Below the pieces are notes generated by a model, which did no database searches, was not told the DNA's origin, and saw only the letters and a program-made list of their open reading frames with translations. From Candidatus Poribacteria bacterium (GTDB taxonomy: Bacteria > Poribacteria > WGA-4E > WGA-3G): a stretch of 64,000 nucleotides of DNA. The position numbers were made by a program, and so were the translations under genes. Location: NCBI GenBank assembly GCA_965205065.1, contig CBDBFT010000001.1, positions 5,102,569 through 5,166,568 of the forward strand, read 5' to 3'. Each line of letters starts with the position of its first letter. Position 1 is the first letter of the stretch. Positions 41,206 to 44,657 of the stretch are shown piece by piece.

Positions 41206-41580
41206 CTAAACAGGCACAACATTTTCAAAATGGAACTTCCCGTCCACATCGGTGAAAACAGGTTCTCCTGGCTTATCCAAAAAAGGAGAATTGTAGTATA
41301 TTTCAATATTATTAAGGGAACTTATCGTTTTATCCCCATCTTTTATGACGACTTCACCGAAAACCGTTCCTTTAATTGCGCTACGCCATTTTCCTGCTAC
41401 AAAATCATATACAGAAAATATTGTAAACGTTATTGTCATTAATACTAACCAACGAATTGCCTCTGTCAGGGAACTCCGTGAGTAGAATTACTATTGACCA
41501 TAATAGCATCCACAATACTAAGAATATGTACGCATAAATAGAAGAATTTTTCTTTCGCATAAACATCAGCCTCTTAAGGG
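41206..41580 (-). pseudogene. frameshifted small secreted protein with carboxypeptidase-regulatory/transthyretin-like domain
   Basis: A signal/TM-containing ORF (MFMRKKNSSIYAYIFLVLWMLLWSIVILL...) ends at a TGA. The domain (GKWRSAIKGTVFGEVVIKDGDKTI...TDVDGKFHFENV) then continues in the +1 frame. Confidence 0.3.
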
Positions 41581-42491
41581 TACAGATCAGTTTTTACCTG
41601 TTTAGATGCATGGTAGGAACTTCGTACTAACGGGCCGGACTCTACATGCCGAAAACCCATCTCATATCCTGTCTCTTTCAGTTCGTCGAATTCTTCTGGG
41701 GTATAGTATCTTTGGATAGGAAGGTGACGAGAAGAGGGTGATAGGTATTGACCAATTGTGAGTATATCACAGTCTGTATCCCGAATATCCTGCATTGTCT
41801 CCAAAAGTTCAATGACCGTTTCACCTAAACCGACCATAAGTCCTGATTTAGTTAACATGTCTGGTTTCATTTCTTTGGCTGTTCTTAGCAGTGATAAGGA
41901 CTGTTGGTAATCAGCATAAGGTCTTGTTCGGCGATAAAGACGTTGGACTGTCTCGGTATTGTGATTTAACACTTCAGGTTCGGCATTGATAATGACTTTT
42001 AAAGCCTCCCAATTTCCCTCAAGGTCAGGAATTAGGACTTCTATGGTACAGGTTGGTCGTCGCAGTCTTGCCTCAGTTATGCAGTCGGCAAAGATTCCTG
42101 CACCACCATCATTTAGGTCGTCCCGGTTCACAGATGTAATGACAACATGGTTTAACTTTAGATATGCGACTGCCTCTCCGAGTCTACGTGCTTCATCGGT
42201 GTCTACCGATCCGACTGGATGACCCTTCGTAACTGCACAGAACATACAGCGTCTGGTGCAAACATCCCCTAAGATCATAAATGTTGCGGTTCTGTTGTTC
42301 CAGCATTCACCAATGTTTGGACATTTTGCTTCTTCACACACTGTATGCAGCTTCAAGTCACGCATGAGCTGTTTTAATTCTACATAGTCACTTCCACTTG
42401 GAATTCGTGCTTTTATCCAAGAGGGGTGTCTTCGTGATGGTTGACTGTGATTGTTGTTTTGCTGTTCTACGATTGGTAAAGATATGCTCAT
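41574..42491 (-). CDS. lipA: lipoyl synthase
   Basis: N-terminal CEEAKCPNIGEC cluster and radical-SAM CTRRCMFC motif. Start trimmed to MSISLP..., because the longer track ORF would overlap tRNA-Sec. Confidence 0.8.
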   Translation of the reverse strand: MSISLPIVEQQNNNHSQPSRRHPSWIKARIPSGSDYVELKQLMRDLKLHTVCEEAKCPNIGECWNNRTATFMILGDVCTRRCMFCAVTKGHPVGSVDTDEARRLGEAVAYLKLNHVVITSVNRDDLNDGGAGIFADCITEARLRRPTCTIEVLIPDLEGNWEALKVIINAEPEVLNHNTETVQRLYRRTRPYADYQQSLSLLRTAKEMKPDMLTKSGLMVGLGETVIELLETMQDIRDTDCDILTIGQYLSPSSRHLPIQRYYTPEEFDELKETGYEMGFRHVESGPLVRSSYHASKQVKTDLYP

Positions 42492-42531
42492 ACTGAATTC
42501 CGGGTGATTTGTTGACAAGAGAGGTAGTATG

Positions 42532-42625
42532 TGGCGGGAGAGGGTGGGAGTCGAACCCACCTATCCACTTGTATGGACAATCCGGTTTTGAAGACCGGTA
42601 GAGCCACCGGACCCTATCCTCCCCC
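42532..42625 (-). tRNA. selC: tRNA-Sec (anticodon UCA), 94 nt, 8/5 fold
   Basis: Folded by hand. Acceptor GGGGGAGG/CCUCUCCC (8 bp, one GU). D-stem 6 bp with a 4-nt loop (CGGU). Anticodon loop CUUCAAA (U33, UCA, A37). A 21-nt variable arm. T-arm GUGGG-UUCGACU-CCCAC. Discriminator G. It is immediately downstream of selB. Confidence 0.8.
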
Positions 42626-42719
42626 ATGCAATATTTGAATAGATATATTCCCCTTGCTGTGCGTTTTGTAAGATGTAACGTTGCAATTTGTATGATGTTT
42701 ACCGTGTTTAATCCTGTTA

Positions 42720-44657
42720 TCACTTTTCTTGCTTTGAAGATAATTTTCTGACATTTCCATCACGAACAGTAACGTTTTGGGTGTCACAGTATTCTAAGAA
42801 TGGGACGGCATATTTTCGTGTTGTTCCTGCTAATTCGCGAAATTCTGCTACAGAGATAGTTTTATTCTCTCGTAGAAATTCAATTAGTTTACGTTTTAGT
42901 TCATCAAATTTTTCCTTATGTATATATAAATTATCATAAGTTTTAATAATCTGTCCAAGATTCATCAAGGCATAAAAGGTAGACTCTATAAGTTGTGGTG
43001 TTAAGTCAGGGAGAAGTGTGCTTAATTCGTTGAGACTGGGTGAATTTATGCCAGCATCATAATATATTTTTTCAAGTATTTCCTTGGTGCTCGATTCTTC
43101 TTCAGAAAACTGTATCTCATGTGAGGACAGACGAAGTAAATTCCCATCTTTTACTATATCTTTAGATTTGATTAATCTATCCGTGATTTTCTCAAAAGCC
43201 AATTCATCTATCTCCAGATCCCGACAAAGCTGTGATGCATTCTGTCCGTTAAGAAGTGGTTGGTCTGCATGAAACTTAGACAGAGAGGAAAGTATCCTAT
43301 CAGTAGTTTCTTTTGTCCGAGATGTATCGGAGATTAAAGGATTTCTTTTTGATGTGTCCCATTTAACTATCTTTCCGTCAGATTCTAATGTGTTAAGAAT
43401 GGTTTTTACTTCAGTTTTTGAATAAGGCAAATAGTAATACAGGAACGACTCTGCAACACAAAGAGTGCTACTATTCTGAAGAAGCGCGTTTACAACTTGT
43501 GTATCATCTGCTTCTTCCCATCGTGTTAATGTTGCGATAGTTTCTTGTGTAAACCGTTTGTGTTTTGGTGCAAAAGGATTAATTACTTCCCCTCCTCCGA
43601 CGGTGTGTTGCGCGGAAAAGTCTCGTAGAATGACTCGATCTCTTCTGAAAGTCAATATAGGTTGTTCTAATCGCAGCTGCACCTGGACGTTTTCACCCGG
43701 TAAGATTGCTTCATCAACTAACAGGATCAGTCTACAGAACAATTCTCTTGTACCAAGATATAGACGGAACCGTCCCCAATGCTCAAGCATTCGTGGAAAT
43801 GATGATAGTACTTGCAAGGATACATCAATATTATCCGTTACTTGTGAAAATTCGATGGGACACAACACATCACCCCGTTCTATCTTGTCGGCAGTTGTTC
43901 CTGAAAGATTCAGTGCTGTTCTTTGTCCTGCTTGTGCGACATCTGCATGTTCGTTATGTACTTGTATGCCGCGCACCCTAACGACATCCCCATGTGGGAG
44001 AATGACCATTCTCTGTTCTCTATTGATTGATCCGCCGATGAGTGTTCCTGTGACAACAGCTCCAAAACCTTCAACAGTAAAGATGCGGTCAACATATAAT
44101 CTCGGAATTCCGTTTTGTTCTTGTGCTTTTGTGGCTAAATCAACCTGTTGAACTATCATCTGTTTGAGTGAATCGATTCCTGTTCCGGTGATAGACGATA
44201 CACTGATGGCGGGTATTCCTTCAAGTGTGGTACCTACTAACATCTCCTGTGTCATTTCGGTAGCTTCTGTGAGTTCATCCTTTGATGCAAGATCAGATTT
44301 CGTCATCACCAGAATCCCATTTGATATACCTAACAGATCTAAAATAGCTAAATGTTCAAGTGTCTGTTCTTGGACTCCTTCTTTTGCATCAACGACGAAA
44401 AGGACAATATCCATCCCATACGCGCCTGAGAGCATATTTCGAATGAATTTCTCATGACCGGGCACATCAACAATCCCCGCCCGTGAGTTATCCGGTAGAT
44501 CGAAATATGCAAATCCTAATTCAATAGACAATCCTCGTTCACGTTCCTCTTTGAGTCTGTCTGTTTCTATCCCTGTTAGCGCACCGACCAGAGCTGTTTT
44601 TCCGTGATCTACATGTCCGGCAGTGCCAATTATGAGGTGTCGTCTATCTTGTGTCAT
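42720..44657 (-). CDS. selB: selenocysteine-specific translation elongation factor SelB
   Basis: GTPase domain IIGTAGHVDHGKTAL...DVPGHEKFIRNML...TKSDL. Long winged-helix C-terminal extension. 645 aa, collinear with E. coli SelB. Confidence 0.85.
   Translation of the reverse strand: MTQDRRHLIIGTAGHVDHGKTALVGALTGIETDRLKEERERGLSIELGFAYFDLPDNSRAGIVDVPGHEKFIRNMLSGAYGMDIVLFVVDAKEGVQEQTLEHLAILDLLGISNGILVMTKSDLASKDELTEATEMTQEMLVGTTLEGIPAISVSSITGTGIDSLKQMIVQQVDLATKAQEQNGIPRLYVDRIFTVEGFGAVVTGTLIGGSINREQRMVILPHGDVVRVRGIQVHNEHADVAQAGQRTALNLSGTTADKIERGDVLCPIEFSQVTDNIDVSLQVLSSFPRMLEHWGRFRLYLGTRELFCRLILLVDEAILPGENVQVQLRLEQPILTFRRDRVILRDFSAQHTVGGGEVINPFAPKHKRFTQETIATLTRWEEADDTQVVNALLQNSSTLCVAESFLYYYLPYSKTEVKTILNTLESDGKIVKWDTSKRNPLISDTSRTKETTDRILSSLSKFHADQPLLNGQNASQLCRDLEIDELAFEKITDRLIKSKDIVKDGNLLRLSSHEIQFSEEESSTKEILEKIYYDAGINSPSLNELSTLLPDLTPQLIESTFYALMNLGQIIKTYDNLYIHKEKFDELKRKLIEFLRENKTISVAEFRELAGTTRKYAVPFLEYCDTQNVTVRDGNVRKLSSKQEK

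Follow-up and report, generated by a model that had tools for sequence, protein, structure and literature searches.

A selB-selC selenocysteine-decoding locus between lepB and lipA in sponge-symbiont Candidatus Poribacteria

Introduction

Can a stretch of DNA that harbors the genes of the elongation factor SelB and of the selenocysteine (Sec) tRNA, but no selA, selD or selenoprotein gene, belong to a working Sec-decoding system, or are the two genes relics of a trait that is being lost? This question is raised by a 64-kb stretch of Candidatus Poribacteria DNA (referred to here as the window, i.e., the whole stretch that was analyzed), in which selB is followed by the tRNA-Sec gene, selC, and both are found between the housekeeping genes lepB and lipA. 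As discussed below, the locus is a normal, intact Sec-decoding locus of sponge-symbiont Candidatus Poribacteria, and the best explanation of the data, which we consider to hold with a probability of about 90%, is a functional selB-selC pair embedded in a lepA-lepB-selB-selC-lipA housekeeping cluster.

In the Sec pathway, seryl-tRNA synthetase (SerRS) charges tRNA-Sec with serine, and SelA converts the product to Sec-tRNA-Sec using selenophosphate made by SelD. The GTP-bound form of SelB binds Sec-tRNA-Sec as well as a selenocysteine insertion sequence (SECIS) hairpin, and brings the tRNA to UGA. In the window, the selC product would serve as the tRNA-Sec of this pathway, the selB product would be the dedicated elongation factor for UGA codons with a SECIS downstream, and the genes of SelA, SelD and the selenoproteins would be located elsewhere in the genome. 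Neither the adjacency of selB and selC nor the use of Sec by sponge symbionts is new, i.e., both have been described, and the locus itself is routine and already known, as it is annotated in dozens of public relatives.

The SelB protein

The selB gene is located at 42720..44657 (coordinates refer to the window, and all features from lepA to lipA are found on the minus strand) and encodes a full-length selenocysteine-specific elongation factor of 645 amino acids (aa). The translation reaches 357.6 bits with the equivalog model TIGR00475 (cut-off 242.25), of which positions 1-579 of 581 are covered, and it contains the Pfam domains GTP_EFTU, GTP_EFTU_D2, Beta-barrel_SelB, SelB-wing_2 (residues 457-510) and SelB-wing_3 (residues 593-639). 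The GTPase motifs GHVDHGKT (G1), DVPGH and TKSD are all present. The closest solved structures are those of SelB from Aquifex aeolicus (4ZU9) and Escherichia (E.) coli (5LZB), and the alignment to the latter is full length, with query residues 8-637 matched to residues 1-603 of the 614-residue chain. An earlier note, made from the sequence of this DNA, had described a full-length SelB with a C-terminal winged-helix extension, and both the two Pfam wing domains and the alignment to E. coli SelB bear out this description. The E. coli and A. aeolicus proteins share with the window SelB the arrangement of EF-Tu-like domains I-III followed by a winged-helix domain IV, the SECIS-binding part of SelB, but the window protein is divergent (~230-240 bits against either chain) and longer, with 645 aa, while the chains from E. 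coli and A. aeolicus have 614 and 582 aa, respectively. The exact sequence has no record in the protein database, where matches reach 98% identity.

Relatives were collected in a scan of one genome per species, which yielded 80 loci with SelB proteins 53-97% identical to that of the window; nearly all are titled Candidatus Poribacteria, and most are metagenome-assembled genomes (MAGs) from sponges. The assignment of the window to this group is based on these loci, and the protein database matches agree with it. When SelB is compared with that of locus L002, the nonsynonymous divergence (dN) is 0.021 and the synonymous divergence (dS) 0.396, i.e., dN/dS is 0.05. The ratio of nonsynonymous to synonymous differences (pN/pS) is low in the EF-Tu-like and the winged-helix parts alike, and this holds against each of the ten relatives tested (10/10). 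These sequence comparisons point to strong purifying selection on SelB.

The tRNA-Sec

The 3' end of selB is separated by a 94-nucleotide (nt) spacer (42626..42719) from selC (42532..42625), which ARAGORN identifies as a 94-nt tRNA-Sec gene with anticodon tca. Here, the adjacency given in the earlier note stands, while the distance of 95 bp stated there is corrected to 94 nt. The Rfam model RF01852 matches at 42536..42625 over its full length (model positions 1-91) with 75.7 bits (gathering score 47, E = 9.7e-14). Acceptance of the gene as tRNA-Sec, with anticodon UCA, by a covariance model is the outcome of a check that had been named beforehand as a possible refutation.

In the minimum-free-energy fold, an acceptor stem of 8 bp and a T-stem of 5 bp yield the bacterial 8/5 form. 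The D-arm is composed of a 6-bp stem and a 4-nt loop (AGGGUC / CGGU / GGCUCU), the anticodon arm of a 5-bp stem and the loop CUUCAAA, and the long variable arm (tRNA positions 46-65) of an 8-bp stem and a 4-nt loop. The 3' end reads ...CCUCUCCC-G-CCA, i.e., the discriminator G73 is followed by an encoded CCA. The G73 discriminator is an identity element for SerRS. ARAGORN, Rfam and the fold together recover the 94-nt length, the UCA anticodon, the 8-bp acceptor stem, the 6-bp D-stem with its 4-nt loop and the long variable arm that had been noted before. The anticodon stem has a mismatch at its top pair, which is A.A in the window tRNA-Sec and A.C in relatives.

The cloverleaf was examined further in a covariation test on 28 distinct Poribacteria sequences, in which 99.8% of the cloverleaf cells hold standard pairs. 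All 13 pairs (13/13) of the acceptor and T helix are kept in the 28 distinct relatives, and the D-stem helix is 98.8% paired. Compensatory changes, i.e., changes on both sides of a pair, are found at 10 pairs, including 7/8 pairs of the variable arm; these values are attained in 0/500 shuffles and by no slid register. Examples are a C-G to U-A exchange in the anticodon stem and the variable arm of L079, which is wholly re-paired. The anticodon UCA, which reads UGA, is found in 77/77 tRNA-Sec sequences.

Neighboring genes and synteny

Upstream of selB, the cluster contains lepA (elongation factor 4; 45557..47380), which reaches 973 bits with TIGR01393 (cut-off 534) and displays the Pfam domains GTP_EFTU and LepA_C, followed by lepB (signal peptidase I; 44654..45457), identified by Pfam Peptidase_S26 (E = 4e-46) and TIGR02227 (151 bits, cut-off 47). 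The lepB stop codon and the selB start share 4 nt (ATGA), an overlap through which selB is probably translationally coupled to lepB; at the same junction in the closest relatives the distance is -1 to +2 nt. On the other side of the tRNA, a 40-nt spacer (42492..42531), which contains a weak GGA Shine-Dalgarno-like motif, precedes lipA (lipoyl synthase, 305 aa; 41574..42491). LipA reaches 391.6 bits with TIGR00510 (cut-off 310.25) and harbors the Pfam domains Radical_SAM and LIAS_N; its translation shows the auxiliary-cluster motif CX4CX5C as CEEAKCPNIGEC, the radical-SAM motif CX3CX2C as CTRRCMFC, and a C-terminal RSSY. The earlier placement of the lipA start 40 nt beyond the 3' end of the tRNA agrees with an ATG at 42491. 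The longer open reading frame (ORF) for lipA, 41574..42560, was rejected, as the earlier note had already advised; this over-extended frame begins at a GTG that falls inside the tRNA gene.

From the above data, selC is predicted to encode a canonical bacterial tRNA-Sec, and every defining feature of tRNA-Sec, SelB and LipA that can be assessed at the sequence level was found.

Among the 80 loci, ARAGORN finds tRNA-Sec directly after selB in 76. In three of the remaining four the contig ends at or near this position (L044 and L078 end at the contig end, and in L060 the tRNA is cut by it); in L076 no tRNA-Sec was found within 10 kb on either side of selB. The order lepA..lepB-selB-selC-lipA is seen in 64/64 loci in which SelB is at least 71% identical to that of the window, with additional genes separating lepA from lepB in many relatives. 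In these 64 loci the median spacer is 34 nt between selB and selC (minimum ~13 nt) and ~38 nt between selC and lipA, and most relatives have 13-40 nt before and 20-40 nt after the tRNA-Sec. The 94-nt selB-selC spacer of the window is shared only with the closest relatives, L002 and L004, most others having a shorter one, while the 40-nt selC-lipA spacer is conserved in L002-L004.

The more distant Poribacteria, in which SelB is 53-64% identical, have no lepB or lipA at this site, and selA is found immediately upstream of selB. A tblastn search with E. coli SelA locates selA next to selB in L062-L069, L077 and L079 (Pfam SelA, 515 bits), and ~5 kb from selB on the opposite strand in L013 and L061. 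Because selA directly precedes selB in the distant Poribacteria, the ancestral arrangement was probably the classical selA-selB-selC, from which the sponge-associated clade moved selB-selC into the lepB/lipA neighborhood.

Individual relatives display variations around selC. In L001, a spacer deletion (11926..11945) lets the selB ORF enter the tRNA-Sec gene by 12 nt, such that the TAG stop codon coincides with tRNA positions 10-12, and the same value of -12 nt was computed for L072. A 65-nt overlap of selB and selC in L006 and L007 was discarded; the sequence identifies it as an artefact of ORF extension beyond the true stop codon. Inserts of 0.7-3.6 kb are found between selC and lipA in L034, L036, L040 and L046, and L025 carries 1.7 kb of extra DNA that separates selB from selC. 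The insert of L034 (12051..15650) carries a gene of a DNA-methyltransferase-HNH fusion and an AAA ATPase gene, that of L036 (4508..6011) a DNA-methyltransferase-HNH fusion gene, and that of L025 (11930..13592) an insertion sequence (IS) element with a DDE transposase. The selC neighborhood appears to be an insertion hot spot. In enterobacteria, selC is also known as an insertion hot spot. Palindromic elements resembling repetitive extragenic palindromes (REP-like, about GTAGCACAAnCTnnnnAGnTTGTGC) are found in the selC-flanking spacers of L001 (12030..12220), L003 (3240..3290) and L060 (8610..8740), and none is present in the window's own selC spacers.

Maintenance of the Sec trait

The search for selA, selD and selenoprotein genes in the window combined three approaches: every ORF of 120 aa or more was compared with Pfam, the SelA and SelD sequences of E. 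coli served as tblastn queries, and the DNA was scanned for TGA read-through. In agreement with the earlier note, none of the three approaches revealed a selA, selD or selenoprotein gene in the 64 kb, nor did the scans give a convincing in-frame TGA junction. The read-through candidates that emerged from the whole window and its intergenic gaps were rejected: they are unrelated neighbors in the same frame or off-frame shadows, apart from a HigB-like toxin and a HicB-like ORF with non-coding DNA behind it. Neither the window nor any of the 80 loci gave a tblastn match to E. coli SelD; the corresponding SelA query detects selA in relatives, and the tblastn approach therefore works. When the flanks of the 80 loci were scanned for TGA and the hits clustered, no selenoprotein emerged; every hit was a gene junction or a shadow, antisense or off-frame, of a conserved gene. 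In the DNA examined, i.e., the window and the 80 locus flanks, there is thus no convincing candidate for a gene with an in-frame UGA and a SECIS.

Published data offer a wider view. Slaby et al. 2017 (PMC5649159) found SelA and SelB to co-occur across most sponge-symbiont bins, and Table S4 of that study lists, for Poribacteria, two SelA, one SelB and one SelD in bin70, four SelA, one SelB and two SelD in bin44, and two SelA, one SelB and one SelD in WGA3G. In a 2026 survey (PMC13582414), Poribacteria are among the phyla that have Sec-containing group 4 [NiFeSe] hydrogenases.

Two alternatives to a functional locus have to be considered. In one, which the earlier note had raised, the trait is decaying, i.e., selA, selD and the selenoproteins are gone from the genome, and selB and selC are left behind as relics. 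The one observation on its side, which at the same time counts against the functional interpretation, is the lack of selA, selD and selenoprotein genes in the window. Set against this are an intact 645-aa SelB frame with a dN/dS of 0.05, a tRNA-Sec that is 99.8% paired across relatives and shows compensatory changes, the retention of selB-selC in 76/80 relatives, the presence of selA at related loci, where it adjoins selB-selC in other Poribacteria, and the SelA, SelB and SelD counts of Poribacteria genomes (PMC5649159, Table S4). Because of the purifying selection on SelB, the compensatory changes in the tRNA, selA in relatives and the published counts, decay is very unlikely, and the genomic record indicates that the Sec trait is maintained. 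In the other alternative, the tRNA would not be a genuine Sec tRNA but a look-alike of different identity, e.g., an allo-tRNA or a tRNA of the selC* type that receives Cys or Ser. Such look-alikes occur in some bacteria. Variants of the anticodon are mentioned in PMC8124441, and the mismatched top pair of the anticodon stem (A.A here, A.C in relatives) could be read in the same way, but the constant UCA anticodon (77/77), the 8/5 form with G73 and the 4-nt D-loop CGGU, the score above the Rfam tRNA-Sec threshold, and the position of the tRNA right after a bona fide selB (in distant relatives, after selA-selB) all oppose this identity, which we regard as even less probable than decay.

Transcription of the locus

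A functional Sec-decoding locus may be transcribed as one polycistron or as separate units. Promoters and terminators were sought with E. coli-type consensus motifs, which may not apply to Poribacteria. The consensus scan found no intrinsic-terminator-like site on the minus strand at 40400..47700, and no sigma-70-like promoter site in either the selB-selC or the selC-lipA spacer. A perfect TTGACA-17-TATAAT is found at 40858..40830, downstream of lipA only, and marks the next transcription unit.

The simplest reading of the locus, which in our assessment has about even odds, is that lepA/lepB, selB, selC and lipA are transcribed as one RNA and the tRNA is then cut out of it. In such a transcript, selC and lipA would most likely be contained together, and RNase P, along with 3' processing, would free the tRNA. 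Neither median spacer (34 and 38 nt) offers enough room for a terminator plus a promoter. With spacers this small and no predicted terminator, lipA could plausibly be co-transcribed with selC; the proposal in the earlier note that the two may be co-transcribed agrees with the lack of a minus-strand terminator and the conserved tight spacing, from which we infer it. Several observations weigh against a single transcript. The number of hits in the promoter and terminator scan, made with E. coli-type consensus, is not above the shuffled expectation, and the scan therefore cannot decide the operon question. Inspection by eye reveals a weak promoter-like TTACAA-N18-TATATC in the 94-nt selB-selC spacer, which could thus house its own promoter. 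Furthermore, physical coupling of the genes is dispensable because some relatives carry foreign genes on either side of selC.

The competing possibility, somewhat less probable than a shared transcript, is that the genes are tightly packed but independently transcribed, with a selC promoter in the 94-nt spacer or at the 3' end of selB, and a lipA promoter overlapping the tRNA gene; the selB-selC-lipA adjacency would then have no regulatory meaning. A stand-alone selC is the norm in E. coli. The weak TTACAA-N18-TATATC element is kept in L002 and L004, and insertions between selC and lipA (L034, L036, L040, L046) and between selB and selC (L025) are tolerated, both of which favor independent units. 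On the other hand, neither spacer yields a promoter-like site in the consensus scan, most relatives leave only 13-40 nt before and 20-40 nt after the tRNA, and the relatives share no motif at a constant position before the tRNA, apart from a frequently A/T-rich segment at -4..-1 (often ..AT). A polycistron would allow a further, unlikely, step, namely that in sponge-associated Poribacteria selC is a fixed internal element of the transcript, such that maturation of the tRNA (by RNase P and 3' processing) would inevitably sever the mRNA between selB and lipA, and thereby tie together the output of SelB, tRNA-Sec and lipoyl synthase. If true, this coupling through selC processing would be homeostatic, similar to what Mukai proposed for selC genes that are nested in selB.

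Comparison with known systems

In E. coli, lepA and lepB form one operon. The window has the same order, lepA then lepB on one strand, but the cluster continues with selB, which overlaps lepB by 4 nt, selC and lipA. Co-transcription of tRNA and protein genes is also known, e.g., from the E. coli thrU-tyrU-glyT-thrT-tufB operon. Here too, a tRNA gene is in line with protein genes, in the window with no predicted terminator between them; the difference is that the window tRNA is internal, with coding genes on both flanks, and would be co-transcribed with them.

Clusters of the selABC(D) type, the adjacency of selB and selC, and selC genes nested in or overlapping selB were described by Mukai 2021 (PMC8124441). 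The window shares with selB-selC pairs and with selABC and selDABC clusters (e.g., fdoGHI-selABCD of Alphaproteobacteria, PMC8124441) a tRNA-Sec gene that directly follows selB in the same orientation, and the distant Poribacteria show the same classical selA-selB-selC order as these clusters. In contrast, in the clade of the window selA is detached, and selB-selC is inserted between lepB and lipA. While selC is nested in Alphaproteobacteria, selB of the window ends 94 nt before selC and there is no overlap. The 12-nt overlap in L001 resembles the partial overlaps reported by Mukai 2021 (PMC8124441).

Other features of the window

Downstream of lipA, two ORFs of 482 and 314 aa (38158..40522, minus strand) are preceded by the TTGACA-17-TATAAT element at 40858..40830. 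They match no Pfam or NCBIfam family, and among the relatives tblastn gives partial matches only in L001, L003, L004 and L022. The 1 kb between these ORFs and lipA (40523..41573) contains no convincing gene.

A 16S rRNA gene (57194..58744, minus strand) is followed by tRNA-Ile(GAT) (56998..57071, minus strand), and next comes a HAD hydrolase gene on the plus strand. No tRNA-Ala, 23S or 5S gene follows the 16S-tRNA-Ile pair, i.e., the 16S gene of the window is an unlinked rRNA gene. An unlinked rRNA gene is also reported to occur on the first poribacterial fosmid (Fieseler et al. 2006). Beside the 16S region, two adjacent DDE transposase genes (DDE_Tnp_1 and DDE_5) are located at 59916..62721 (minus strand).

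A 931-aa protein encoded at 24166..26961 (minus strand) combines N-terminal regions 2 and 4 of an extracytoplasmic-function (ECF)-type sigma factor with a large BNR/Sortilin-type beta-propeller, which is an unusual fusion. Two ORFs were recognized by eye, and from the translation only: a HigB-like toxin ORF at 19263..19610 (plus strand), which a TPR protein gene follows directly, and at 56365..56682 (plus strand), between the HAD hydrolase and tRNA-Ile, a HicB-like ORF; both fit the enrichment of toxin-antitoxin systems reported for sponge symbionts. Proteins with WD40 and TPR repeats, as well as a sulfatase, are encoded at 17841..18896, 19614..21521, 48763..49893 and 28440..29849, genes that Poribacteria and sponge symbionts typically have and that agree with the taxonomic assignment.

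Implications

The locus does not challenge the current understanding of Sec biology. As a small comparative observation, it points to a probable relocation of selB-selC to the lepA-lepB...lipA neighborhood, with very short spacers, in sponge-associated Poribacteria. For the organism itself, we infer that this Poribacteria genome decodes UGA as Sec at specific sites, and gene callers should therefore expect genes that look truncated at UGA.

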